Positions 4,256 to 17,791 of a stretch of 17,793 nt of DNA are shown here, one piece after another. This stretch comes from a bacterium (lineage in GTDB: Bacteria; Arandabacterota; Arandabacteria; Arandabacterales; JALGWA01): assembly GCA_050125095.1 (NCBI GenBank), contig JASFEA010000067.1, positions 1 through 17,793 of the forward strand, written 5' to 3'. Numbering within the stretch: the stretch's first letter is position 1; every line of letters starts with the position of its first letter. Below the pieces are notes generated by a model. The model saw nothing but the letters and a program-made list of their open reading frames with translations, was not told where the DNA came from and ran no database searches. The translations under genes were made by a program, and so were the position numbers.

Positions 4256-7200
4256 GTGCGTTATACGATTGGCGACCTTATCGGCACCGGCAGCTTCGGC
4301 CGGGTTCATGAGGCGCATGACGCAGCCGGGCGGAAATACGCGGCCAAGGTCGTTGACGCCGGCGACGAAGTCGGCCTTTGCCTTTTGAGGGCTCAGTACC
4401 GACTTCTTTCGGCGGCAGACCACCCGCGCGTCGTCACCGTCTACGACCTGGTTGAGGACGGCGACGGTGCCCCGCACCTGGTAATGGAGTACCTTGACGG
4501 CCTGTCGCTTGTCGACCACGTAAGAAAAGCCGGCCTCGAGAGTCTTCCCGGCCTGGCGATCCGGATACTTGATGGCCTGAGGCATATCCACAGTCTCGGT
4601 GGGATGCATGGCGACCTGAAGCCCGACAACATAGTTGTCTGCGGCGGTGAAAACGGTCATGACGTGAAGCTTGTCGATGTCGGTTTCGACAATGCCGCCG
4701 GCGAGAAACTTCCCAGGATACAGGGGACGCTTCCCTACCTGGCCCCCGAGGTAATCCGGTCCGATCCCGCAGACGGCAGGAGCGATCTGTACTCGCTCGG
4801 GGTCGTGCTTTATGAGGCCTTGACCGGAGCATGCCCCTTTGGGGGAAATTCTCCGAGAGAGATAATGAACAGGCACCTCGAGTTCACGCCCCCGCCGCCG
4901 GGTGTCGTCAGCGGCGACGTAGACAGCGCCTGGGACGATCTCGTAATGAGGCTTCTCAGCAAAGAGCCGACGCAGAGGTTTCCCGACGCAACAGCCGCGG
5001 CATTCGAAATAGGGCGGGCCTTCGGGGATATCGACCTGGTGGCAGGCAATCTGGCGCCGCCGCGGACTCTTGCGCATCTCTGGGACATGAATGGCGGGCT
5101 CGTGGAAGAAGCCATTCTGAGCAAACCCGGCAGGGCCGTAATGGTAGGCGGCGGCCGCCATGCGGGCGTTGCCAGTGTGCTCCGCAATGTCGGCGCGCGC
5201 TTGAAATCGCGGGGGGCCGGAGTCATATCAGTAACGCTTGGGGACAGCGATCCCCTGTCCGCCCAGGTTGTCCGATCGCTGGCCGGGCATGGCGCCGGGC
5301 GGCGCCATGCTCGAGGCGACCTGCCGACGCGCGTTTCGAATCCGGAGCTTTTCTCTCTCGACTCGCTGCTCGCGGACTACGACCTCAGCCTTGGCCGGAG
5401 GCATGCCATCATTATCCGGGCCGCGTCAGAAATCGACGGCGCCGGCCTCAGAGCCATGTCCGAGCTCGCCGCGGCCAGCAGCGATTTAGTCACCGTGGTC
5501 ATCGGCCTCGAATCGGAAAGAGGCGTGGCAGACGGACCGGTGGCTGAGGCCGGGGTGGAGTTCGTCCCCATGGCGACCCTGATGAGCGAGGGAATAGCCG
5601 ACATACTCCGACGTCAATTCGGCGTCACATCCGTCCCGGCCGAACTGCTGGAGGCGCTTGTAGGGAACACGCGCGGGAGCGCCTTGCTTCTCGAGGAAAC
5701 GCTTGCTGACCTGTGGCGTAGCGGAGATCTCGGCTATAAGATCAGCAATGACGTTCTGGAATTGGAGTGGACCAGCAGGGCAGCTCTACCCGATAGTCTC
5801 AAGCAGGTTATTGAGAATAAGGTAGGCGAACTTGACGAAAATGCAGTCCGGGTGGCCGGCCTTCTCGCTCTGGCCGGAGGCAGTCTTGAGCGCAGTATAA
5901 TCGCGGAGGCCGGCGACCACCATGGCTGGGAGCCCTACATATCCGAGCTCGTCGAGAGGGACCTTGTCGATGATGCGGGCGCCGGAATGCTGCGTTTCAA
6001 TCATGCCGTGACGCGCGGCGTTATACTCGAGCGCCTGTCACCCCAATGGGCAAAGGAGACGGCCGTCCGGCTCGCCGGGGAAATCGAGAAGGCCGGCATC
6101 GGCCCCGCCGATTCCTACAGGATCGGCTCTCTCTATCAGACTGGCGGCAGACCCGCCGACGCCCTTCCCCATCTGCTGAGGGCGGGAGACTACTTCGCCC
6201 GTTTCTCAGTTATGGACGCGACTCTGGCCTACGGTCGAGCGCTGGACTGCGCAGCGGCAGGCAAAGAGCGAGCCGAAATCGAGGAGAAGCTGGGCGACCT
6301 CAAACTCGTCGAAAGTGACTTTGATTCGGCGCGGGACCATTACGAGCGGGCGTCCGGTTACAGGCCGGAGGCCGCGAGGAAACGCGCCTGGGTCGCAGCC
6401 CTGGACGGCAAGTACGAAGAGGCCGAGGAGATGCTGAAAGGGTGTGAGCGGGCCGCGGAGAAGAGGGGGGACGAGATCGAACTGGCCAGGGTGCGCGTGG
6501 ACCTGGCCTACGTTTACGCCGCCCGGGGCAAGATAGAGGAGTCGCTCGGGGTGGTGAGCGGGGCACGCAGATTCTTCGAAGAGAGGCAGATGGCCTCCGA
6601 GGCCGGTCTGGCTGCTTACCGGGAGGGCATCACTCGCATGCGGGCGGGAAAATACGGCGCAGCCACATCCGCCTGGCAGGCGGCTGTATCCCACTTCGAA
6701 GCGGCGGGCGACCGCCGTATGGCCGCGCAGAGCCTGCAGGCCATCGGTTACGCCGGCAGAAAGCAGATGGATTACCAGAGGGCGAAGCAAAACCTCAAGC
6801 GGTCCCTTGAGATTTACAGCGATCTCAAGGGGCTTTCAACCATGGCGTCGGCTTCCAACACCTATTCTCTCGTGCTGCTCGAAATGGGCGACCTGGTGGG
6901 TTCAAGGGAGTTCGCCCGCGAAGCTCTGGAGTTCAACATGATGGCCGGCCTCAAGCGCGGCGTTGTGCTGGCCCGGATGTTGGCCGCCTTGATAGAGCTC
7001 GAGGCCGGTAATTGGCGGATCGCCGAAAATGCCCTGTCGGAGGCTCAGGGAGGCATTCCGCCGGAGGATCTCTACCTGAAGGCCCAGCTGCAGCGCTATC
7101 TCGCGATGGCAAAGATAATCTCAGGTGACAGGGACGGCGCATTGGCCCTGATAAAAGAGAGTCATTCGTCGGCGCGCCTCGCCGGTGACGAGGAAGGCAA

Positions 7201-9220
7201 GTATCAGGCCCTGCTTGAAAAGGCAGTGGCCCTTCTCAGGTTCGGCGATGCCGGTGAGGCGGCTGAGGCAGCAAGAGAGGCACTCGTTGGGTTCAGCACC
7301 GAGACGTCTCTGCTGCTCACCGCGAGGGCGCAGGCTCTCCTCGGGGAGGCGTTATGCGCGGACGGCAAGGTGGACGAAGGTTTTGAGAAACTCGAGGCGG
7401 CGCGGGCCAACCTGCTCCCGGTGAGCAGGTCGCAGCACATGGGAAGAGTGTTCAAGGCCCTGGCGCGGGCATCCTATCTGCGCCGGGATCACGCGACTTT
7501 TTCCAAGTATCTGGATGAAGCACTTGAGATATTAAGGGCGGCAGGGGCGCGGTACGATTTCGCCGACGCCCTGTATCTCGGCGGCATGGAGGCGATGCAG
7601 AGGGGCGGTTTCCTGAGGGCCCGTCACTACTTCGCCGAGGCCGCGCGTATTTTCGAGAGCCTTGAAATCGATGACCTCCGCGAAAAGGTGGTGAGAGCTA
7701 TGGAGGCGGTACCGAGCGGCGAGATTGAGGTGAAGGCGGTTCATTCCCTTAGCCGGATATCACAGGCCCTGATATCGAAGCAGGACCTGGACAGCGTGCT
7801 TAATGTCGCCATGGATCTGGCCATGGACTACCTGGGCGCGGACCGGGGAGTCCTTATGCTGGCAACGGGTTCAGACGGCGACATGGTAACGGTTGCCGAG
7901 AGAAAGATGGACGAGGAGTCTCTGCGCGAGGTAGCGGACATAAGCAAGTCCATTGTCGAATCAGTTCGTTCCACGGGTGAGCCGGTAATAGCCACCGACC
8001 TCATGGACGACCCGCGTTTCAAGGACAGCCAGAGCATTCGTACGCATAACATAATGTCGGTGATGTGCCTGCCGCTCATGCGCGACAGGCGTCTGCTCGG
8101 GCTCTTATACCTCGACACAAGAGGCATACCCACCAAGTTCTCGGACCTTGAAAAGGCCTTCGTAGAAGCTTTCGCCAATCAGGTCTCGCTGGCGACGGAG
8201 AACGCGCGCACTCTCGGCGATCTGCGCATCAGCATCGACAATATGAAGGCGCGCGCGGGTGAGAGGTATCGCTACAGCAATATAATCGGGCCGGGACGCG
8301 CCATGCAGGAGGTATTCAGACAGGTCGAGAAGGCCGCGCCCAGCGATACCAACATCCTGCTCAGGGGAGAGAATGGCACGGGCAAGGACCTCATCGCAGG
8401 CCTGATACACGAACTCAGCCCCCGCAAGGATGGGCCGTTCATCGAAGTCAACTGCCCTGCCATAGCCAAGGACCTCGTGGAGAGCGAGCTCTTTGGAATC
8501 GAGAAGAGCGTCGCGACGGGAGTTGCCCCGCGATCGGGCTTTTTCGAGCGTGCCAACGGGGGAACCATATTCCTGAACGAGATCGGCGACGTTCCGCTCG
8601 CCACGCAGGTCAGGATACTCAGCGTTATCGATAAGAAGGAATTCGAGCGCGTGGGCGGGACCAGGGTAATCAAGGCCGACGTGCGTGTAATCACGGCGAC
8701 CAATCGCGACCTCAAGCACCTAATCACAAAGGGCGCTTTCAGGGAGGACCTCTATTACCGTATAAACCATATTCAGATAGGACTTCCTCCCCTGAGAGAG
8801 AGGATGGAGGACCTGGACGATCTCATAGCACACTTCATAAAGGACTTCGCCGCAAAGAACTCCAAGTCGCTGAAGCGCGTGTCGGAGGAGGCCCACAACG
8901 TACTCCGGGCCTATTCCTGGCCCGGCAATGTACGCGAGCTCGAGCGTTGTATCGAGCGGGCCGTTGTTTTTTCCGACGGTAATGAGATCCTCATAACCGA
9001 TCTTCCGGAAGAGGTGATAAAGGGGGCCAGGACGGGTCAACGCAGTGTGAAGGGGAGTACGCTTCCCGAGATTGTCGCCGATATCGAGAAAAGCGTTATC
9101 ACCGAGGAGCTGGGAAGGACGAACTGGAACAAATCCAGGGCGGCCCGAAATCTGGGCATTCACGAGGCCACCTTGCGCAAGAAAATCAAGATCCACGGCA
9201 TAGCAAAATCCCCCAACTAG
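4256..9220 (+). CDS. Multidomain sigma54-dependent transcriptional regulator: Ser/Thr kinase, degenerate STAND-like NTPase, TPR repeats, GAF, AAA+ sigma54-interaction domain, Fis-type HTH
   Basis: Kinase: IGTGSFGRV, YAAK, HGDLKPDN, DVG, GTLPYLAPE, DLYSLGVVLYE. Ala-rich helical TPR region about 6100-7670. GAF: ISKSIV...DDPRF..SQSI...SVMCLPL...LGLLYLD. AAA+: LLRGENGTGKD, VNCPAI, ESELFG, FREDLYYR, WPGNVREL. HTH: WNKSRAARNLGIHEATLRKKIK. Confidence 0.92.
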   Translation: MRYTIGDLIGTGSFGRVHEAHDAAGRKYAAKVVDAGDEVGLCLLRAQYRLLSAADHPRVVTVYDLVEDGDGAPHLVMEYLDGLSLVDHVRKAGLESLPGLAIRILDGLRHIHSLGGMHGDLKPDNIVVCGGENGHDVKLVDVGFDNAAGEKLPRIQGTLPYLAPEVIRSDPADGRSDLYSLGVVLYEALTGACPFGGNSPREIMNRHLEFTPPPPGVVSGDVDSAWDDLVMRLLSKEPTQRFPDATAAAFEIGRAFGDIDLVAGNLAPPRTLAHLWDMNGGLVEEAILSKPGRAVMVGGGRHAGVASVLRNVGARLKSRGAGVISVTLGDSDPLSAQVVRSLAGHGAGRRHARGDLPTRVSNPELFSLDSLLADYDLSLGRRHAIIIRAASEIDGAGLRAMSELAAASSDLVTVVIGLESERGVADGPVAEAGVEFVPMATLMSEGIADILRRQFGVTSVPAELLEALVGNTRGSALLLEETLADLWRSGDLGYKISNDVLELEWTSRAALPDSLKQVIENKVGELDENAVRVAGLLALAGGSLERSIIAEAGDHHGWEPYISELVERDLVDDAGAGMLRFNHAVTRGVILERLSPQWAKETAVRLAGEIEKAGIGPADSYRIGSLYQTGGRPADALPHLLRAGDYFARFSVMDATLAYGRALDCAAAGKERAEIEEKLGDLKLVESDFDSARDHYERASGYRPEAARKRAWVAALDGKYEEAEEMLKGCERAAEKRGDEIELARVRVDLAYVYAARGKIEESLGVVSGARRFFEERQMASEAGLAAYREGITRMRAGKYGAATSAWQAAVSHFEAAGDRRMAAQSLQAIGYAGRKQMDYQRAKQNLKRSLEIYSDLKGLSTMASASNTYSLVLLEMGDLVGSREFAREALEFNMMAGLKRGVVLARMLAALIELEAGNWRIAENALSEAQGGIPPEDLYLKAQLQRYLAMAKIISGDRDGALALIKESHSSARLAGDEEGKYQALLEKAVALLRFGDAGEAAEAAREALVGFSTETSLLLTARAQALLGEALCADGKVDEGFEKLEAARANLLPVSRSQHMGRVFKALARASYLRRDHATFSKYLDEALEILRAAGARYDFADALYLGGMEAMQRGGFLRARHYFAEAARIFESLEIDDLREKVVRAMEAVPSGEIEVKAVHSLSRISQALISKQDLDSVLNVAMDLAMDYLGADRGVLMLATGSDGDMVTVAERKMDEESLREVADISKSIVESVRSTGEPVIATDLMDDPRFKDSQSIRTHNIMSVMCLPLMRDRRLLGLLYLDTRGIPTKFSDLEKAFVEAFANQVSLATENARTLGDLRISIDNMKARAGERYRYSNIIGPGRAMQEVFRQVEKAAPSDTNILLRGENGTGKDLIAGLIHELSPRKDGPFIEVNCPAIAKDLVESELFGIEKSVATGVAPRSGFFERANGGTIFLNEIGDVPLATQVRILSVIDKKEFERVGGTRVIKADVRVITATNRDLKHLITKGAFREDLYYRINHIQIGLPPLRERMEDLDDLIAHFIKDFAAKNSKSLKRVSEEAHNVLRAYSWPGNVRELERCIERAVVFSDGNEILITDLPEEVIKGARTGQRSVKGSTLPEIVADIEKSVITEELGRTNWNKSRAARNLGIHEATLRKKIKIHGIAKSPN

Positions 9221-9234
9221 TGGGTGATAACCCT

Positions 9235-9433
9235 CCGTACGATCATACGAGTCGTATAATCGTACGAATCTAATCTCATGGCAGAGGACTCATGCCCTCT
9301 TAAGCCAATGCCTGTATTAATCTTTTAAATTTCAATATATTACCTCTCCTAAACATGCTTCAATCGCTTCAGCACACCCGCTTTTGAGGTCGGATCGCCT
9401 TTTCAGGTTACGAATTCTCGTATTTCTGTACGA
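9235..9433. promoter_or_regulatory. Palindromic upstream activator sites (T/C)CGTA-N6-TACGA, three copies
   Basis: CCGTAcgatcaTACGA 9235-9250, TCGTAtaatcgTACGA 9252-9267, TCGTAtttctgTACGA 9418-9433, plus a TACGA half site at 9409. The first two form a 15-bp inverted repeat with one mismatch. Confidence 0.75.
9330..9342 (+). promoter_or_regulatory. IHF-like binding site (distal)
   Basis: TTTCAATATATTA, one mismatch to WATCAANNNNTTR, preceded by an A/T tract; lies between the two UAS clusters. Confidence 0.5.
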
Positions 9434-9487
9434 ATCCGACCGAATCCGCGCATACGGCCTGCTCCTATCCCATTTTATTTGCTTAAA

Positions 9488-9500
9488 TAACAACTAGTTA
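9488..9500 (+). promoter_or_regulatory. IHF-like binding site (proximal)
   Basis: TAACAACTAGTTA, one mismatch to WATCAANNNNTTR, with upstream ATTTTATTT tract; lies between the UAS and the -24/-12 promoter. Confidence 0.6.
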
Positions 9501-9532
9501 GCGATGCAAAAAACTCGGCCTTTTTCCCGCGC

Positions 9533-9548
9533 GGGAACGGAAGTTGCC
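9533..9548 (+). promoter_or_regulatory. sigma54 (-24/-12) promoter
   Basis: gGGAACGgaagTTGCc: GG at 9534-9535, exactly 10 nt, GC at 9546-9547; resembles the consensus TGGCACG-N4-TTGC. Confidence 0.72.
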
Positions 9549-9596
9549 TTTATATAGGGTGGAAGTGTGATCGGGAGCACGAAAAGGAGGGTTTTT

Positions 9597-9824
9597 ATGG
9601 TCAAGAAGAGCTTGGTATTGTTCCTCATATTGAGCTTTGTGACCGCATTGACTTTGTTAACGCTCACAAATGCTTGCTGGGCGGATGACGACGCTGCCGG
9701 GGAAGGTGGGGATCCCGGCCAGATCAATCCGAGCTGCGAGCCTGTCACCCCGACACCAATCATCCTCAAGTTATTCTGGTACGCGGTTGGTTTGGTAGCG
9801 GGGAGTCTTGCTGCCATGCTGTAA
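9597..9824 (+). CDS. 75-aa small exported protein with signal peptide, short acidic segment and C-terminal hydrophobic helix
   Basis: Strong RBS AAGGAGG ahead of ATG 9597, preferred over GTG 9567. MVKKSLVLFLILSFVTALTLLTLTNACWA|DDDAAGEGGDPGQINPSCEPVTPTP-IILKLFWYAVGLVAGSLAAML. Confidence 0.8.
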   Translation: MVKKSLVLFLILSFVTALTLLTLTNACWADDDAAGEGGDPGQINPSCEPVTPTPIILKLFWYAVGLVAGSLAAML

Positions 9825-9883
9825 ACCGGAATAGAGCCCAGGGGCAGGGTGGTGGTGTTGGGGTGCCGGGAGGTTGAGGTGAG

Positions 9884-10603
9884 ATGACAAGCAGTGATCC
9901 GAGGATGCAGCCAGTGCTGGACCTTATGAGGAAGGCCGCGGAATGCTCGGCGAATGTCCTTGTCGAGGGTGAAAGCGGGGTGGGCAAAGCCTATTGTGCC
10001 CGCCGGATCCATGAGGCTTCGGCTCGCAGCGAAATGGCCTATGACAGCATCTTCTGCGTGCCTGAGACGCGCGCAGGGGGTGAGGGCAGGAGAATCCTGG
10101 CCCGTCTCCAGGCCGCAGAGCGGAAGTGGGGAAGCATTTATGTACGGGGCGTCGACCTGCTCGATGCCGTCAGCCAGCGTATGCTGCTGGCCTATCTTGA
10201 TTGTAGAGAGGACAGGATCGCCTCCTGCAGGGATCAGGGCTCTTGGGCAAGGCTCATTTTTTCGAGCCAGAAGGACCTATTAGAGGAGTCAAGATCGGGG
10301 CGCTTCTTAAGCCAGCTCTACATGAGGATTTCGGTTGTGAGAATCAGGATCCCGCCCTTGAGGCAAAGGGACGCCGACATAGTGCCACTCGCCAGGTACT
10401 TCGTCGGGCTCTATTCGAAGCGGGAGTCCAAGCGAATCAGCAAGCTGAGTCGCGAGGCCGAGGCGATGCTTCGCCGGTCGGCATGGGATGGAAACATTCA
10501 TGAACTAAAGAATGTTCTTAATCGTGCTGTGGTCATGGCTAACGACGGGGACTCACTCGGCCCGCGCGATCTCAGCCTGGTATTACGACGCGCAAACACC
10601 TGA
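9884..10603 (+). CDS. Stand-alone degenerate sigma54-activator AAA+ domain protein (no sensor domain, no GAFTGA loop, no HTH)
   Basis: RBS GAGGTG; ANVLVEGESGVGK Walker A, RIHEASAR, GRFLSQLYMRISVVRIRIPPLRQR, WDGNIHELKNVLNRA; in-frame stop at 9875-9877 prevents an N-terminal extension. Confidence 0.85.
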   Translation: MTSSDPRMQPVLDLMRKAAECSANVLVEGESGVGKAYCARRIHEASARSEMAYDSIFCVPETRAGGEGRRILARLQAAERKWGSIYVRGVDLLDAVSQRMLLAYLDCREDRIASCRDQGSWARLIFSSQKDLLEESRSGRFLSQLYMRISVVRIRIPPLRQRDADIVPLARYFVGLYSKRESKRISKLSREAEAMLRRSAWDGNIHELKNVLNRAVVMANDGDSLGPRDLSLVLRRANT

Positions 10604-10659
10604 GTTCTTGACATTGAATTGGCGTCGGCGAGGGACATGGGTGTTCGCAGGGAGGACAA

Positions 10660-11052
10660 GTGTCCGAGCGTGACCAGATCGAAGAGTTAATGCACTTTCT
10701 TCTGGCGAACGTGCTGGTCAATTCACTTGAAAAGGACGGATTCGAAGTCAGGGCGGACCATATCGGTGGTCTCCGGGGCGCTCCTACGCCGGTCGATGGT
10801 CTGACCCCTGACATCGAAGCCGTCAAGGGTGATGAGACCAGGCTGATCGAGGTCGAGACCCCGTCGACCGTTGGGAGCGATGAAGCCAGGAAGCAGATCG
10901 CGGCCTTCGCGGGAAAGCCGGGAGTCAAGGCCTACCTGGCCGTTCCCTATGACAGTGTCGACGAAGCCCGCAAGCTCAGGGATGAGCTCGGGGTCGAGTT
11001 CAACATCATCCCCTGTTATCCCTATGTGAACTCCATCGGTACACCCGAGTAG
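10660..11052 (+). CDS. Small hypothetical protein with PD-(D/E)xK-like (restriction endonuclease-like) motif
   Basis: RBS GGAGGA before GTG; TPDIEAVKGDETRLIEVET followed by the helix EARKQIAAF and the strand AYLAVP. Confidence 0.7.
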   Translation: MSERDQIEELMHFLLANVLVNSLEKDGFEVRADHIGGLRGAPTPVDGLTPDIEAVKGDETRLIEVETPSTVGSDEARKQIAAFAGKPGVKAYLAVPYDSVDEARKLRDELGVEFNIIPCYPYVNSIGTPE

Positions 11053-11055
11053 GCG

Positions 11056-11082
11056 GCGCGGAGCGGGGAAGCCCGCCTGCGC
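11056..11082 (+). terminator. GC-rich hairpin directly after the stop codon (possible terminator or stabiliser, no U tract)
   Basis: GCGCGG-A-GCGGG GAAG CCCGC-CTGCGC. Confidence 0.35.
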
Positions 11083-11097
11083 GGGACAGGAAGTCCA

Positions 11098-11151
11098 GGG
11101 GTCTGGCCCCAGCAGCTCGCTCCGGAAGCTCGTTTAATGGGGTCAGGCCCC
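11098..11151. repeat. Pair of 13-bp near-palindromes GGGGTC(T/A)GGCCCC (REP/STIR-like)
   Basis: GGGGTCTGGCCCC 11098-11110 and GGGGTCAGGCCCC 11139-11151; same GGGGTCAG core as the reverse complement of the 4138-4205 repeats. Confidence 0.65.
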
Positions 11152-11319
11152 CTTATGTCCGCATCCCGGTGTTGCGTGGAATCCGGCTCAGGCGATGTCG
11201 GACGACTTCGAGCGGCGATGGGCGCCGCTGTCAAGCCATTGACATCCCTCGCGATCTTAGGGAGAGTATTTCCAGGAGGAGTCCCCCGAGTTTCGGTTCA
11301 AAACCGGGAGGGCCCGTCT

Positions 11320-12606
11320 ATGGAAGGCACCAGCACGTCACTCGTAAGAATTCTTCACGGCACCGCTGGCAGAGGCGGTCGCCGGACCGCACTATTGGGA
11401 GCGCTGTCAATGCTCTATCTGGCAGCCTCCATCTTCTCCGGCTGCGGCGATGGGGCATCGACAGGTCCGGGCGATCAGGAAAAGGCCTGGACTTTCATGT
11501 TCTATGACCAGGCGGATGCGCCCCTGGGCTCATATGATCCAATGGAGGACTTCTGCAGAAGGGTCGCCTCGGGCTCCAGCGTGGACTTCGTCGTGCTCAG
11601 GGACACCAACGGAGACTCGGCAAGAATCTGGCACGTGACGGACGCACATATTCCTGCTCTCTGCAAAGAACTCGGTGAAGTCAACATGGGAGACGGCCAC
11701 ACCCTTTTCGACTTCATCGATTACTCCAAGACGCACTATCCCGCCCGGAGGTATGTGCTGGCGTTCTACGGCCACGGCGGGGGATGGCGGGGCGCATGCT
11801 TCGACCGCTCGAGCCAGTACGACGCTCTTACAATGGATGAAATATCGTGGGCGGTGGGGAATGCCGGCGGCGTGGACCTCACTGTTTTCACCAGCAACTG
11901 CTTCATGGGGGCGGTGGAGTCGGCCTATGAGCTGAGGAACTGTACGGACATATACGTGGGCAGTGAGAATTACTGCGGCTATGCGTTCTGGGACGCTCCC
12001 ATGGAAGACATCTGCAATGCGATGCATGCAGATCCGGACATGTCCAGTGAGGAACTCGCGCGTTTCATTGTCGATGCGGTCTGGGCTCGCAGGGACATAT
12101 GGGTCGAGGAGGACTGGTATCAGAATCTCACGGTGAGCGCGGTCTGGGCGGACAGTCTTGCCTCGCTGGTCCAAGCGCTTGATGAAGTCGCAGGCGATTA
12201 CCTCTCATGCCCCGCCAGGCTGCACGCCAGAATCAGCTGGGTCTATTCTGCCATTTGCATGTTTGGAGAAGAAGTGGTCGACGTATATCATCTGGCGCAC
12301 TGCCTGCTGAAGGTGGAGGACTGTGACAGCACCCGGACGAGGCTCGAGACCGTCAAGGAGCGGCTCTTGGACTGCGTTCTAGCCGAACGCCACGATCCCG
12401 TCTGGAGCGCGTATGGCCTGACTGTGCTCCTGCCTTACAAGTCCGAGTATGGCTACTACTGCCCCGAATACGGCGCTCCCGAAACGGCTCTGGATTTCGC
12501 CGAGGACACGCGTTGGGACGAGTTGCTCGCGGCCTATCCCTATGATTTCCCGGATGTGCCGCTCCAGGGTCCACCGGCCAGTATCCCCGTGGCCACCGGT
12601 CCCTGA
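11320..12606 (+). CDS. Clostripain-family (C11) cysteine peptidase, predicted lipoprotein
   Basis: RBS GGGAGG before ATG 11320, preferred over 11137; hydrophobic stretch then IFSG|C lipobox-like site; KAWTFMFYDQAD, GEVNMGD, YPARRYVLAFYGHGGGW (catalytic His), NCFMGAVESAYEL (catalytic Cys), YVGSE. Confidence 0.88.
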   Translation: MEGTSTSLVRILHGTAGRGGRRTALLGALSMLYLAASIFSGCGDGASTGPGDQEKAWTFMFYDQADAPLGSYDPMEDFCRRVASGSSVDFVVLRDTNGDSARIWHVTDAHIPALCKELGEVNMGDGHTLFDFIDYSKTHYPARRYVLAFYGHGGGWRGACFDRSSQYDALTMDEISWAVGNAGGVDLTVFTSNCFMGAVESAYELRNCTDIYVGSENYCGYAFWDAPMEDICNAMHADPDMSSEELARFIVDAVWARRDIWVEEDWYQNLTVSAVWADSLASLVQALDEVAGDYLSCPARLHARISWVYSAICMFGEEVVDVYHLAHCLLKVEDCDSTRTRLETVKERLLDCVLAERHDPVWSAYGLTVLLPYKSEYGYYCPEYGAPETALDFAEDTRWDELLAAYPYDFPDVPLQGPPASIPVATGP

Positions 12607-12656
12607 AGGTGGCGGCGCTGCGGACGGCGGTGTCCTGACCCGGCCTGAGAAATCCC

Positions 12657-12690
12657 TGCCAGATTTCAGCTAGAACCTGCCACATTGGCA
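12657..12690. promoter_or_regulatory. Putative activator sites upstream of dnaK
   Basis: TGCCAgatTTCAG 12657-12669 and palindromic TGCCAcatTGGCA 12678-12690, 21 bp apart (two helical turns), about 100-130 bp upstream of the -24 element. Confidence 0.55.
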
Positions 12691-12737
12691 TGGGAAGCCG
12701 CTCAATGCATGCGCTGGCCCGAAGGGTCGAATCTGTT

Positions 12738-12750
12738 TAACCGGTTGATA
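12738..12750 (-). promoter_or_regulatory. IHF binding site
   Basis: Minus strand TATCAACCGGTTA, an exact match to WATCAANNNNTTR with adjacent A/T tract, between the putative UAS and the sigma54 promoter. Confidence 0.75.
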
Positions 12751-12789
12751 AATAAATCTTTATGCTGACGATATGAGCCATAAGGGCAC

Positions 12790-12805
12790 TGGCACAACGA
12801 TTGCA
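12790..12805 (+). promoter_or_regulatory. sigma54 (-24/-12) promoter of dnaK
   Basis: TGGCACAACGATTGCA, a near-perfect match to TGGCACG-N4-TTGCW. Confidence 0.88.
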
Positions 12806-12889
12806 TTGGATAACAAGCGGAACCAAGATAACGCAAATTCGGGCCGGTCCGCACTCATGCGGGCCTTGGCCGCTAAGGAGGAGATGAAA

Positions 12890-14827
12890 ATGGGTAAGAT
12901 CATCGGAATCGATCTGGGTACCACAAACTCATGTGTCGCGGTTATGGAGGGCGGCGAGCCTACCGTGATTACCAACCAGGAGGGAAGCAGGGTAACGCCG
13001 TCTGTAGTCGCTTTCACCAAGACGGGCGAGAGGCTGGCCGGGCTTACCGCCAAGCGGCAGGCCATTACCAACCCTCAGAACACCGTTTACTCCATCAAGC
13101 GGTTCATGGGCAGGAAGTTCGGCGAGGTTGAGTCGGAGATAGGCGAAGTGCCGTATGAGGTCGTTCAGGGCCCCAACGGTGACGCCAGGGTCAAGGCGGG
13201 CGGCAAGGAGTATTCGCCTCCCGAGATCTCGGCCATGATTCTACAGAAACTGCGCCAGACGGCTGAGGACTATCTCGGCGAGAAGGTGACGGACGCGGTC
13301 ATAACCGTGCCCGCTTACTTCAACGACTCCCAGCGTCAGGCGACAAAGGACGCAGGCAAGATCGCGGGGCTCAACGTCAAGCGAATCATCAACGAGCCGA
13401 CGGCGGCTTCGCTCGCCTACGGCCTTGATAAGAAAGCCAAGGATGAGAAGATCGCCGTGTACGATCTCGGCGGCGGCACGTTCGACATCTCGATTCTCGA
13501 GATAGGGGACGGCGTCTTCGAGGTTCGTGCGACCAACGGCGACACCCATCTCGGCGGCGACGACTTCGACCAGCGCATAATCGACTGGCTTGCAGAGGAA
13601 TTCAAGAAAGAGCAGGGAATCGATCTCAAGAGCGATCCCATGGCGCTGCAGCGCCTCAAGGAAGGCGCCGAACGCGCCAAGTGCGAGCTTTCGAGCGCGC
13701 AGGAGACGCAGATCAACCTGCCGTTCATCACGGCCGACGCCAACGGTCCCAAGCACCTTAACATCACGCTCTCGCGCTCCAAGCTCGAGCAGCTTGTGGA
13801 TGACCTGGTAGAGAGGACGGTGGGGCCCTGCAGGAAGGCGCTCGAGGACGCCAAGCTGAGCCCGAGCGATATCGACGAGGTCATCCTAGTCGGCGGGCAG
13901 ACCAGAATGCCGGCGGTGCAGGAAGCCGTTAAGAAGATCTTCGGCAGGGACCCTCACAAGGGCGTCAATCCCGACGAGGTCGTGGCCATAGGCGCGGCCA
14001 TTCAGGGCGGCGTGCTCGCGGGCGAAGTGAGAGACGTGCTGCTTCTCGATGTTACCCCGCTCTCCTTGGGCATCGAGACCATGGGCGGCGTCTTCACGAG
14101 GCTGATCGAGCGCAACACGACCATTCCTTCGAGGAAGTCGGAGATATTCACGACGGCCGCCGACAGCCAGCCGGGTGTCGAAGTTCACGTGCTCCAGGGC
14201 GAGCGCGAGATGGCCGCAGGCAACAAGTCAATAGGCAAGTTCCATCTGACCGGGCTGCCGCCCGCCCCGAGGGGTGTTCCGCAGATTGAAGTTACATTTG
14301 ACATTGACGCGGACGGGATATTAAATGTATCCGCCAAGGACCTCGCGACGGGTAAGGCTCAGTCGATCAGGATCGAGGCTTCGAGTGGACTTACCGAGCA
14401 GGAAATAGATAAAATGGTAAAGGACGCCGAAGCTCACGGTGCTGACGACAAGCGCAGGCGCGAGGAGGTCGAAGCAAAGAATCGAGCCGACCAGCTCGTC
14501 TATGAGACCGAAAAGAATCTCAAGGAGATGGCCGACAAGGTTTCTGCTGATGACCGGGCCAAGGTTGAGGCGGCCATAAGCCGCACCAGGCAGGCTCTCG
14601 AGGGTGACAACATCGAGGAGCTCAAAGCCTCGACGGACGCTCTCATGCAGGTGGCCGGGCAGGCTGCACAGGCCGCATATCAGCAGGCGGCGGGCGCCGG
14701 CGCCGGTCCGGGCGCCGGTCCGGGCGCGGGCCCGGGGCCGCAGGCCGGTCCTGCGGGAGGAGCCGACGAGCAGGCGCAAGGCGGCCGGGACGAAGCTGTC
14801 GATGCCGACTACGAAGTCGTGGACTGA
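12890..14827 (+). CDS. dnaK: Molecular chaperone DnaK (Hsp70)
   Basis: RBS AAGGAGGA, then [60 protein letters not shown]-terminal DADYEVVD. Confidence 0.99.
14693..14740 (+). repeat. Coding low-complexity repeat (GAGP)n in the DnaK C-terminal tail
   Basis: ggcgccggtccg 12-mer units encoding [16 protein letters not shown]. Confidence 0.7.
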
Positions 14828-16048: not shown

Positions 16049-17791
16049 CTAGAGCGTGAGCTCGGACGCGATGCCGAGCTCGGTCGACTGGCTCGTGACC
16101 GCTCCCGTCTCGACGTCCTTTATAAGGACTTCGACCTCATAGTATCCCGCAATCAGACTCGAGAGGTCAATTCCCATGACCTGGCTCGTTGTGCCGCCGT
16201 CGGTTCTCATCTCGTAGCCGCTCGCGAGCGACACGATTTCCGTGGTCGGCTTTATGCCCACGGTGCGCGCGAAGAATGACAGCAGGCGCTGCGTTCTCGA
16301 GCGCCGCTCCGGGATCCTGCGGAACACATAGCTGACCTCGAGCCTGCCCCTGCCGTCCTCCCCGGTGGCGATGTTGTAGGCTTCGAAGGCGATATAGGCC
16401 TTGCTCCTGGTCTCATACATCCGGGACGGGTTGGGCCGGCCCTCTTCGTCGAACCTGAGCTCGAGGTCGCTTATCTCGAGACTGTCCCCGAAGGCCCGCA
16501 CGTTAACGTCGCGATGCGTGAAGCCCACGGCGTCGTTCTGGTTGGAAGTGAGCGAGATTGCGAGCACGCCCTTGCCCGTCGGCACTCTCACGTTGAGCGT
16601 GTCTATGAGCGGGCAGGTCGTGAGGTAGATGGCCGTGGAGTCGGCGTGTATTTTGCGGGTCAGCGTGAAGTGGGAGACCTCATTATAGAGCGTGTCCAGC
16701 AGGGCCCCCTCGACGACGAATTCCCCCCTCGGCCAGTCGTATTCGCGGTCGAATACGAGGCCGTTGAAATCGCAGGCATAGGCGATCTTGAAGCGCGTCG
16801 ACCCGTCGGGCTCCATGAATGAAAGCCCGACGAGCTCCACCTTCATGAGTTTCTTGATGTCCTGCTCGTAGACCTCGGGTATGTTTTCCTCCATATACGC
16901 GTACCTGTAGGCCGACCAGTCGTACTCGTAGGGGAAGGAGTAGTCGCCGTTGAGGAACGTGTCCTCGAAGTTGAGAACGAAGCCGTCGTATACCCACATC
17001 CACCGCGGGCGTTCCTTTCCCATCCGGCTCGACCTGTAGCGCGACGCCTGCTCGGCGTAATCCTCGAACCGCGTCGTGAACGGCGTCGTCATCAGCCGCT
17101 CGGTCGGGTTCAGCACGTCGCCGGCGAATGTGTTGGTGCCGAAGGGGTCGTAATACCAGTTGAGCGGGCGGCCGTATCGGATGAAGACCTCGCCGCGCGT
17201 GGTGAGCGAGCCCGGCTTGTCCAGCCTGCGCACGTAGAAGTGGAAGTCCGAGAAACTGACCCGCGATAGATGTTCCACGAGCCTCTCGTTGACGCGCGTC
17301 GCGGGGTTGGGATCCCGCTTTCTCCAGAGCAGGATTGTGACCGAGTCCATGTGGCCCGGGTTGGTTTTGGCCAGCGCCCTGAGTTCGTCGCCCGTCGCGA
17401 TCACGTCCAGCGAAAGGTACCGCCGGCGCTGGGAGTCGGGCATGAGGCTGAGGGCCCTTGAGAAGGCCTCATAGGATGAGCCGAGTTCGCCCCGCTCATT
17501 GTAGGCCATGCCCATGACAAGATACGCGTCGGTGCCGAGGCTGTCGGAGGGAAGTCTCTCGAGGATCTTGACGGATGAGTCGGGCTGGCCGGTGTCGAGA
17601 TAGCAGAGGGCGAGATAGGTCGCCGCGTCGACGAAGCCGGGCTGGAAGCGCATGGCCCGCCTGAGCGACAGGTTAGCCTCCTGGAACTGGTCGGTCTGCC
17701 ATTCCTCGAAAGCCCTGTCAAGATGGGCGCGACCGAGCCTGAAATGCGGGTACGGCCTTCTGGGCTGGAGCTCTATTGTCTTCTTGAGCTG
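16049..17791 (-). CDS. TPR-repeat GWxTD-domain protein (5' part outside window)
   Basis: Frame open to the window end (QLKKTIELQPRRPYPHFRLGRAHL...); TPR-like helices; LWRKRDPNPATRVNERLVEHLSRV...PGSLTTRGEVFIRYGRP matches the GWxTD family pattern; beta-rich C-terminus ending in AGYYEVEVLIKD. Confidence 0.85.
   Translation of the reverse strand, partial: QLKKTIELQPRRPYPHFRLGRAHLDRAFEEWQTDQFQEANLSLRRAMRFQPGFVDAATYLALCYLDTGQPDSSVKILERLPSDSLGTDAYLVMGMAYNERGELGSSYEAFSRALSLMPDSQRRRYLSLDVIATGDELRALAKTNPGHMDSVTILLWRKRDPNPATRVNERLVEHLSRVSFSDFHFYVRRLDKPGSLTTRGEVFIRYGRPLNWYYDPFGTNTFAGDVLNPTERLMTTPFTTRFEDYAEQASRYRSSRMGKERPRWMWVYDGFVLNFEDTFLNGDYSFPYEYDWSAYRYAYMEENIPEVYEQDIKKLMKVELVGLSFMEPDGSTRFKIAYACDFNGLVFDREYDWPRGEFVVEGALLDTLYNEVSHFTLTRKIHADSTAIYLTTCPLIDTLNVRVPTGKGVLAISLTSNQNDAVGFTHRDVNVRAFGDSLEISDLELRFDEEGRPNPSRMYETRSKAYIAFEAYNIATGEDGRGRLEVSYVFRRIPERRSRTQRLLSFFARTVGIKPTTEIVSLASGYEMRTDGGTTSQVMGIDLSSLIAGYYEVEVLIKDVETGAVTSQSTELGIASELTL

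Follow-up and report, generated by a model that had tools for sequence, protein, structure and literature searches.

A kinase-fused sigma-54-type regulator gene and the putative operon downstream of it, with a stand-alone pseudo-AAA+ gene, in an uncultured wetland bacterium

The DNA described here, referred to as the window, is the 17,793-nt contig JASFEA010000067.1 of assembly GCA_050125095.1, which represents an uncultured wetland bacterium of the phylum Arandabacterota (3.35 Mb, 268 contigs, 91% complete). It carries the gene for a regulator of 1654 amino acids (aa), hereafter the giant, in which a kinase is fused to a sigma-54-type activator with a helix-turn-helix (HTH), and then a 376-nt spacer and three short open reading frames (ORFs) for a 75-aa exported protein, a 239-aa stand-alone pseudo-AAA+ protein (the short AAA+ protein) and a 130-aa protein (orf130). 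Upstream on the same plus strand lie the 3' end of a clpX-like gene, engB, a class-V aminotransferase gene and purA; downstream follow genes for a clostripain-family peptidase, DnaK and a DUF2007 protein. The window was compared with the orthologous loci of ten other genomes of the same order, from two GTDB families, giving a set of 11 loci. An earlier sequence-only reading had listed the giant, three palindromes, two IHF-like sites, a -24/-12 promoter, the 75-aa ORF and an HTH-less AAA+ domain; all of these are present and are conserved across the 11 loci. The third gene of the unit, orf130, had been missed. Here we present the features of the locus, summarized in Table 1, together with an interpretation as a local regulatory unit.

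Table 1. Features of the giant regulator gene and of the unit downstream of it (coordinates refer to the window)
Feature	Coordinates (nt)	Strand	Basis and remarks
Giant regulator	4256..9220	+	ORF, 1654 aa; Pkinase, STAND-like, TPR, GAF, sigma-54 AAA+, HTH (Pfam)
Ser/Thr kinase of the giant	4262-4981	+	Pkinase PF00069, aa 3-242, E 3.4e-37
TPR array of the giant	about 6287-7669	+	TPR_12/TPR_16, aa 678-855 and beyond
GAF domain of the giant	7784-8194	+	aa 1177-1313
Sigma-54 AAA+ domain of the giant	8282-9040	+	Sigma54_activat PF00158, aa 1343-1508, E 1.6e-59, plus AAA_lid_14
L1 loop SVATGV at the GAFTGA position	8507..8524	+	alignment with eight paralogues of the same genome
Walker B, N-E for D-E	8576..8581	+	FLNEIGD in the window and in same-genus locus L034
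Fis-type HTH of the giant	9074-9190	+	HTH_8, aa 1607-1645
Distal pair of 16-bp palindromes, CCGTACGATCATACGA and TCGTATAATCGTACGA	9235..9267	.	candidate enhancer (upstream activating sequence)
IHF-like site 1, TTTCAATATATTA	9330..9342	+	CAA-N4-(G)TTA block
Proximal palindrome, TCGTATTTCTGTACGA	9418..9433	.	about 100 nt before the -24 element
IHF-like site 2, TAACAACTAGTTA	9488..9500	+	CAa-N4-GTTA block, 11/11 loci
Sigma-54-type -24/-12 promoter, GGGAACGGAAGTTGCC	9533..9548	+	GG-N10-GC with TTGC
75-aa small protein	9597..9824	+	signal peptide, acidic Pro-rich segment, hydrophobic C-terminal tail; 11/11 loci
239-aa stand-alone pseudo-AAA+ protein, sigma-54 activator type	9884..10603	+	Sigma54_activat PF00158, E 1.4e-17, AAA_lid_14
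130-aa protein (orf130), restriction-endonuclease-like fold, third gene of the unit	10660..11052	+	11/11 loci, between the short AAA+ gene and dnaK; fold predicted from weak matches

The giant has no membrane segment. Its kinase is of the non-RD type (HGD), and residues K31, H118, D120, K122, D141, G143 and A163-P164-E165 are invariant among 32 orthologues. For the NTPase-like part of the sequence-only reading there are precomputed AAA_16 matches in the orthologues, and for the window protein itself Pfam gave no AAA_16 match at E<=0.01; the STAND P-loop is degenerate in the orthologues of the order, with the consensus GExGSGVxR lacking the Walker A lysine. The middle region of the protein (aa 260-1140) found no match outside the order among 201 genomes. 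The giant belongs to an unnamed database family with the domain order Pkinase-AAA_16-TPR-GAF-Sigma54_activat-HTH_8, in which 34 orthologous clusters are followed by many paralogous ones and whose members are labelled Candidatus Eisenbacteria, Zixibacteria and others. Its close relatives carry the NCBI label 'sigma 54-interacting transcriptional regulator [Candidatus Eisenbacteria bacterium]'.

The Walker A motif of the sigma-54 AAA+ domain reads GENGTGK. Two other motifs depart from the activator consensus, both of them overlooked in the sequence-only reading. The L1 loop reads SVATGV, whereas all eight aligned paralogues of the same genome have canonical loops (GAFTGA, GAFTDA or GSFTGA); V1419, A1420, T1421 and G1422 are invariant in the 32 orthologues. 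In the Walker B motif N-E stands for D-E in all seven clusters of the genus (P0122-P0128; six by motif script, P0128 by the printed YLNEIG), and the other nine loci of the order have FLDE or LLDE. The length of the loop, its T-G and all other AAA+ motifs are retained in the alignment. An ATG-type loop is also present in most full-length giants of the databases, including those labelled Zixibacteria, and a minority keep GAFTGA. As a separate observation, the large clade of kinase-fused activators P0122-P0241 reads x[VTAI]ATGV at the GAFTGA position (F to A), beside conserved -24/-12 promoters.

The spacer behind the giant contains all three copies of CGTA-N6-TACG in the window (at 9236, 9253 and 9419), against 0.07 expected, and none of 200 shuffles reached three copies. 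Across the 3.35-Mb assembly the 14-mer occurs at background level (51 found, 26-43 expected), with a cluster of palindromes on this contig only; the six other near-consensus palindromes that were inspected each lie singly inside long ORFs. By exact pattern, 9/11 loci keep the distal pair, or one palindrome of it at the least, about 337-362 nt before the small ORF, degenerate copies being visible in the alignment of the 11 spacers, and the proximal palindrome is found 157-187 nt before the small ORF in every locus. None of the 11 loci has the palindromes upstream of the giant. In one locus (L043, G010:C459) the stop codon of the giant is followed by about 2.9 kb of extra DNA, and the palindromes come only after it, with the promoter of the small ORF.

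Most columns of the spacer alignment are unconserved; the palindromes, the CAA-N4-TTA blocks and GG-N10-GC stand out as conserved blocks. The block of IHF-like site 1 is kept in 10 of the 11 aligned spacers, locus L041 having a deletion there. In all 11 loci the small ORF is preceded, at a distance of 56-81 nt, by the -24/-12 element, which is near consensus in several of them (TGGTATGCGCCTTGCAA). The genome encodes RpoN and holds four genes of the HU/IHF family. A short leader motif, GCGATCGG, is conserved in the same alignment; in most loci it reads G(C/T)GATCGG and falls, at 9562-9578 of the window, after the promoter and before the ribosome-binding site. A search of 9100-9950 against Rfam gave no match at E<=1.

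Giants from other lineages allow the HTH helix to be set against the palindromes downstream. The helix IHE[AS]T[LV]RKK, found in the own order and in the distant locus L111, goes with TCGTAC..GTACGA downstream, and so does CSEGLIRKK in L112; the helix ITEPTLRRR of a Zixibacteria-type giant (L069) goes with TCGTCA-N4-TGACGA before each of two sigma-54 promoters. Of 17 other giants, 15 have no TCGT-N8-ACGA within 700 nt; the remaining two, whose helices are unrelated, have a single one (TCGTGAGGAAGGACGA in L117, TCGTGCCGAACCACGA in L120), in neither case of the TCGTAC..GTACGA type. Helix and palindrome vary together across lineages. Combined with the absence of the sites upstream of the giant, this makes the strongest case at hand for a giant that reads these sites and has the downstream operon as its target; it points, weakly, to binding of the palindromes by the giant. 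The idea of a local regulator-plus-target unit, put forward in the sequence-only reading, has gained from the conserved position of the sites, from the uniqueness of the palindrome cluster in the assembly and from this tracking of the helix.

The small protein has a basic N-terminus, a hydrophobic core and an xFA/D(G) junction (the slash marks the cut), and ends in a tail of 14-20 residues without basic residues. In the window the signal peptide is predicted, by eye, to be cut after C-W-A at residue 29. All 11 loci share the pattern xFA/DG...PGDP..LPPG..LEPTP..LSDF, followed by the hydrophobic tail. Six pairs of loci were compared codon by codon, and in four of them differences are most frequent at the third position and least frequent at the second; between the window and L034 first- and third-position differences are equal, and the second position is lowest in all six pairs. 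This pattern fits a fast-evolving coding gene. The protein belongs to no Pfam or NCBIfam family, and its leads in the ESM Atlas, to clusters of small membrane or pilin-like proteins, stayed below threshold, with scores up to 0.87. The idea of a PEP-CTERM-like sorting tag was dropped by eye, without a search aimed at it, as the tail lacks a basic cluster and the motif differs from PEP; a lipoprotein reading was dropped as well, the cysteine before the cut being unconserved.

The short AAA+ protein consists of the AAA+ domain and its lid, and Pfam finds neither an HTH nor a regulatory domain in it. Its model (pLDDT 91.4) has the AAA+ domain of NtrC1 (3m0e) as best fold match, with a TM score of 0.81. 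In an alignment to NtrC1 and the giant, GEGRRILARL replaces YEKGAFTGAV of NtrC1, the segment being about ten residues shorter, and in the model an unbroken helix (66-78) runs through the point where L1 would be inserted. The Walker B motif has R-G for D-E and sensor I has SSQ for ATN; in the FRxDLYYR segment L and Q stand for R and D, so that one arginine is lost, and sensor II has H for R. The earlier description as a dead activator domain is therefore apt, with GAFTGA, Walker B, the FRxDLYYR arginine and the sensor II arginine all lost. It was wrong to regard it as a copy in the sense of a recent duplicate of the giant, because it shares 32% identity with the AAA+ domain of its neighbour and is no closer to it than to the other paralogues (31-37%).

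Identity among 52 sequences of the short AAA+ protein ranges from 43 to 90%, with 38 invariant columns and an invariant Walker A (GESGVGK), and the gene is, to judge from these sequences, under selection. Since Walker A is intact the protein probably still binds nucleotide; its motif losses predict that it cannot hydrolyse ATP or touch sigma-54. In a collection of 5.8 billion proteins the family forms 67 clusters at 177-515 bits, below which ordinary activators begin at 117 bits. A search of genome contigs returned six ordinary activators from Acidobacteriota and Gemmatimonadota (31-34% identity) and no orthologue; the more distant copies described below were detected only by a profile run on ORFs adjacent to giants.

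For the short AAA+ protein paired with the AAA+ domain of the giant (aa 1335-1600), complex prediction gave a score of 0.48, compared with 0.00 for the best control, and the runs agreed in at least 89% of contacts, with a pLDDT of at least 83 for the partner. The mark used was reached by 58/80 solved complexes and by 2/110 mismatches in the calibration, and the range from the mark up to 0.60 held 7 of the 80 solved complexes and both mismatches. The prediction is weak support for an interaction, and because activator rings have already been solved, its passing may reflect likeness only.

The model of orf130 (pLDDT 87) gave weak Foldseek matches to XisH (2inb, E 4.7e-4, TM score 0.47) and to Hjc (E about 3e-3); a Pfam match to Hjc lies below the cut-off of that family. 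P50-D51 and E64-V-E66-T are conserved, and lysine is absent from the usual place of a PD-(D/E)xK motif. Contigs from four RNA-library runs (wetland metatranscriptomes, at most three samples) cover 9738-9882 and 9853-11048, and contigs from all four runs bridge the junction between the short AAA+ gene and orf130 (10603-10660). They leave 8500-9737 and 11049-12900 uncovered, which says nothing on expression there. A terminator scan gave no convincing terminator in 9824-12606, with seven terminator-like sites overall against 4.5 expected.

The order purA, giant, small ORF, short AAA+ gene, orf130 and dnaK is kept in all ten fetched loci. Of the 18 species genomes of the GTDB phylum 15 have the giant, as a single copy, and the same number contain its middle region; both the giant and the short AAA+ gene are missing from two genomes of a third family (96% complete).

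For loci outside the phylum, the Zixibacteria-type giant P0204 was searched against metagenome contigs and 401 genomes. The resulting far set numbers 20 loci, namely the 20 giant loci outside the phylum, less one without downstream DNA and plus the metagenome locus L069. According to the sequence-only reading, homologues of the giant should be linked to small exported ORFs. Under a fixed rule, a small signal-peptide-like ORF lies at most 1 kb downstream, on the strand of the giant, in 7/20 far loci; nine kinds of control stretches gave 0-2 of 20 (mean 0.44), and on this point that reading is not refuted.

In four of the 20 far loci (L069, L111, L112 and L114) the small ORF is followed by a degenerate HTH-less AAA+ ORF. 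In L069 the giant is followed by TCGTCA-N4-TGACGA, the promoter-like element AGGCACGCTTATTGCA and a 124-aa lipoprotein-like ORF, and a second unit repeats the palindromes, with AAGGCACAATCCTTGCAA and a 69-aa signal-peptide ORF (..VLA/DGEGTGQPLPP.., hydrophobic tail); overlapping this ORF is a 276-aa HTH-less AAA+ ORF with GENGVGK and without GAFTGA. An IS200-like ORF (11994-12497 of L069) lies between these two sigma-54 units, both of which have the palindrome of the giant. Locus L112 contains two palindromes of the window type (TCGTACGCCCGTACGA), a small ORF with a signal peptide or transmembrane segment, a 265-aa short AAA+ protein (E 4e-24 against the profile) and, after it, a homologue of orf130 (E 1.2e-7). 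In L111, TCGTACGATCGTACGA occurs twice, followed by a signal-peptide ORF of 78 aa and an AAA+ remnant of 201 aa that lacks Walker A, and L114 has TGGCACGTTCCTCGCG, a 109-aa signal-peptide ORF and a 182-aa AAA+ remnant. In L069, L112 and L114 the short AAA+ ORF overlaps or abuts the frame of the small ORF. Giants of both loop types have the trio, the ATG type in the own order, L069 and L114 and the canonical type in L111 (GAFTDA) and L112 (GAFTGA).

Loci L108, L109 and L118 have a -24/-12-like element and a small signal-peptide ORF, and no short AAA+ ORF was detected there. The peptides of L118 and L039 share 16/41 identical residues over AD..DP..LPGD..PPG (E 9e-4), in a single comparison that was picked after inspection. 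Some other downstream genes are larger: L107 and L119 share a conserved ORF of about 570 aa after the giant, and L110 and L120 one of about 485 aa, so the giant family has several kinds of downstream partner. In L109, about 640-870 nt past the stop codon of the giant, a 78-aa ORF resembling a lone Fis-type HTH (..WDKAKTAEELGLTISELLNEMRKL..) follows the small signal-peptide ORF and may be another truncated activator piece.

The reading that we prefer, with a probability of roughly 0.55, is that of a local sigma-54 unit in which the giant binds the palindromes and controls the three-gene operon, and the pseudo-AAA+ protein modulates the ring of the giant. The giant would integrate signals through its kinase, STAND-like/TPR and GAF parts and, through its Fis-type HTH, would bind the three TCGTA-N6-TACGA palindromes just past its own stop codon. 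Aided by IHF-type bending, it would control the -24/-12 promoter, and this promoter would drive an operon for the exported small protein, the pseudo-AAA+ protein and the putative nuclease-fold protein. The pseudo-AAA+ protein would join or cap the AAA+ ring of the giant and so feed back on the activator, and the small exported protein would be the physiological output or a signal. The comparisons establish the layout of the locus and its conservation, the single site cluster in the assembly, the joint variation of HTH helix and palindrome, and the degenerate state of the short AAA+ protein and its recurrence with the giant in other phyla. That the giant binds DNA, that the promoter depends on sigma-54, that the three genes are co-transcribed and that the short AAA+ protein binds the giant is inferred, as is the sign of its effect. 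A negative sign, as had been proposed in the sequence-only reading, is the more likely one: the short AAA+ protein would most likely act as a brake, because it lacks everything needed for ATP hydrolysis or sigma-54 contact. Inference of this kind and the one complex prediction suggest a negative feedback weakly.

Several observations weigh against the preferred reading, and the main weakness is the non-canonical loop of the giant together with, in this genus, its Walker B. The loop is xVATG[VI] instead of GAFTGA in 11/11 orthologous giants, the Walker B is N-E in the genus of the window, and changes of the loop or of Walker B in PspF and NtrC usually abolish activation (compare the available part of PMC7175178). 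The -24 element of the window is itself imperfect, with GGG and not TGG. Synteny within the order extends to the housekeeping neighbours clpX, purA and dnaK, so that linkage inside the order alone proves little. Outside the order the short AAA+ ORF accompanies the giant in only 4/20 far loci, a word-based protein search gave no relative of it, a profile built from the 11 small proteins matched the far small ORFs at no significant E-value (best 0.035 and 0.17 among 3768 ORFs), and eight of the 20 far loci (L107, L110, L113, L117, L119, L120, L124, L125) have no convincing promoter or exported ORF downstream. The RNA-library contigs cannot show a transcription start or a single transcript, and such libraries may hold DNA.

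In another reading the giant, with SVATGV and N-E, would be unable to remodel sigma-54 and would not itself activate this promoter; it would occupy the palindromes as a scaffold or repressor, or act on another form of the polymerase, and one of the canonical activators of the genome would fire the promoter. The loss of the F of GAFTGA and of the D of Walker B would suit this, as would the 15 activator-like genes that the genome carries besides the giant and the short AAA+ gene, with canonical loops in all eight that were aligned; VpsR, TyrR and Caulobacter NtrC, which are activator-like and lack GAFTGA, work with sigma-70 according to the available part of the literature. We nevertheless consider it rather unlikely. 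ATG-type giants are flanked by conserved -24/-12 elements in 11/11 loci of the own order, by two in L069 and by one in L114, the canonical relatives in L111 and L112 share the palindrome and the downstream genes, and the giant keeps the loop length, T-G and the remaining motifs. On the strength of these conserved promoters, and of canonical relatives with identical sites and targets, we argue that the ATG-type loop may still serve sigma-54.

Two further readings assign the small protein a different part. It might, whole or as a processed fragment, be the signal of a peptide loop that is sensed by the TPR or kinase part of the giant and damped by the pseudo-AAA+ protein. Such a loop would fit the excess of small signal-peptide ORFs directly downstream of giants in the far set; the small ORF also evolves fast, as signal peptides of such systems often do, and the AD..DP..LPGD..PPG pattern, chosen after looking, is common to the own order and L118. 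Its difficulty is topological: the peptide has an export signal and a hydrophobic tail and the giant lacks a membrane segment, so sensing by the TPRs is awkward and contact would need re-import or a relay. The TPRs moreover belong to a STAND-type module, where they usually serve oligomerisation, and the small-ORF profile has no significant match across phyla. We take this loop to be improbable, and give equally little credence to its widest form, in which giant, secreted mini-protein and pseudo-AAA+ protein would be an ancient module spread over several uncultured phyla, with a peptide that signals from cell to cell or reports the envelope state, its readback through kinase and TPRs, and poisoning of the ring to set the gain.

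Alternatively, the locus might be a unit for envelope or export stress similar to the Psp system, the small hydrophobic protein being a membrane sensor or effector and the pseudo-AAA+ protein an anti-activator that it holds or releases, much as PspB and PspC do with PspA. The layout does resemble that of pspF, which has an inhibitor and small membrane proteins encoded in the adjacent sigma-54 operon, and the overlapping or abutting frames in L069, L112 and L114 as well as the position between clpX and a sigma-54-driven dnaK could be read in the same sense. Against it, neither Pfam nor NCBIfam matched PspA/IM30, PspB or PspC to the ORFs of the unit, almost none of the small protein would face the cytoplasm after cleavage of the signal peptide, and the chaperone-gene neighbourhood is general synteny; the odds of this reading are low. 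That the short AAA+ gene is a functionless, decaying remnant of a duplicated activator would agree with the loss of four catalytic or contact motifs, and yet this looks refuted and is the least probable reading by far, as the frame is intact in 11/11 loci and in the 67 database clusters, Walker A and lid motifs are invariant, the fold is predicted with confidence, the gene is present in RNA libraries, and similar ORFs recur independently beside giants in other phyla.

Some features of the neighbourhood are recorded here in their own right. The gene for the clostripain-family peptidase (Peptidase_C11, 11137-12606), between orf130 and dnaK, is found in the window and in same-genus L034 only (2/11 loci). 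The real start of dnaK is near 12899, and the upstream region (12600-12804) contains a near-perfect sigma-54 promoter, TGGCACAACGATTGC, at 12790-12804. An element of this type lies 77-136 nt before the dnaK start in 11/11 loci and is preceded by TGCCA-N4/5-TGGCA-like repeats, which differ from the palindromes of the giant. Sigma-54 promoters have been predicted on dnaK and groEL in related phyla (available part of PMC12316311). Downstream of dnaK, on the opposite strand and conserved across the order, are ORFs for a 534-aa TPR protein that also has a GWxTD domain and for a 234-aa protein with a weak TonB_C match (16049-17653).

Sigma-54 activators are textbook AAA+ machines of gene control. 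If the preferred reading is correct, a dead, loop-less AAA+ paralogue encoded in the target operon of the activator, an arrangement retained in several phyla, would be a new way of tuning the ring, as a dominant-negative or capping subunit under feedback. With one regulator, three 16-bp sites and one promoter the unit is a compact test bed for what the large and unstudied family of kinase-STAND-fused activators senses, and it could reveal if GAFTGA with a natural F-to-A change is still functional with sigma-54. In the available part of PMC12316311 GAFTGA is treated as invariant and is used to filter activators; should the ATG-type loop work, GAFTGA-based censuses of this kind would miss a whole clade. 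The three-part module, if true, would be a peptide-signalling circuit of a kind undescribed in diderm bacteria, built on a rewritten sigma-54-contacting loop. In a literature search that left aside subscription papers and supplements, neither the kinase-fused architecture nor a stand-alone AAA+ partner lacking GAFTGA was found described. New here are the pseudo-AAA+ partner, the occurrence of the three-gene unit in several phyla and the HTH-palindrome tracking.

Among known systems, the C-terminal 480 residues of the giant are most readily compared with activators of the NifA/NorR/FhlA type (GAF, AAA+, HTH_8), with which they share the domain order, Walker A, sensor, lid and Fis-type HTH; the adjacent upstream activating sequence, IHF-like sites and -24/-12 promoter at its locus add to the likeness. 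Unlike these activators, the giant has 1140 extra N-terminal residues with kinase, STAND-like and TPR parts, its L1 loop is SVATGV and, in the genus, its Walker B is N-E. Comparable in architecture are PknK of Mycobacterium tuberculosis, one of the STAND Ser/Thr kinases, and the MalT-type STAND regulators. Pkinase and TPRs are shared with PknK, as is, to judge from the matches in orthologues, an AAA_16-type module between them, whereas the output of the giant is a sigma-54 AAA+ domain with HTH and the P-loop lysine is missing in the order. The likeness to RRNPP quorum sensing, drawn in the sequence-only reading, is one of position only, in that a TPR-containing cytoplasmic regulator is encoded beside a small exported peptide; in the giant the TPRs lie in a STAND module and the output is sigma-54, and the host is uncultured, with relatives labelled Candidatus Eisenbacteria.

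For the short AAA+ protein the nearest counterpart is FleT of Rhodobacter/Cereibacter sphaeroides, described in the available part of PMC7175178 as the only known enhancer-binding protein without regulatory and DNA-binding domains, which acts in a hetero-oligomer with its full-length partner FleQ. The short AAA+ protein likewise has neither of these domains. It differs from FleT in lacking GAFTGA and the D-E of Walker B and in the replacement of one FRxDLYYR arginine and of the sensor II arginine, which excludes a role as an ordinary activator subunit, and also in being encoded in the target operon and not beside flagellar genes. In the systems PspF/pspABC and HrpR/HrpS/HrpV, the activator gene adjoins a sigma-54 operon, one product of which, along with small membrane proteins, feeds back on the AAA+ domain of the activator. 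Members of the PspA, PspB, PspC and HrpV families were not found by Pfam and NCBIfam among the ORFs of the unit described here, in which the putative modulator is, in contrast to these systems, an AAA+ paralogue itself.

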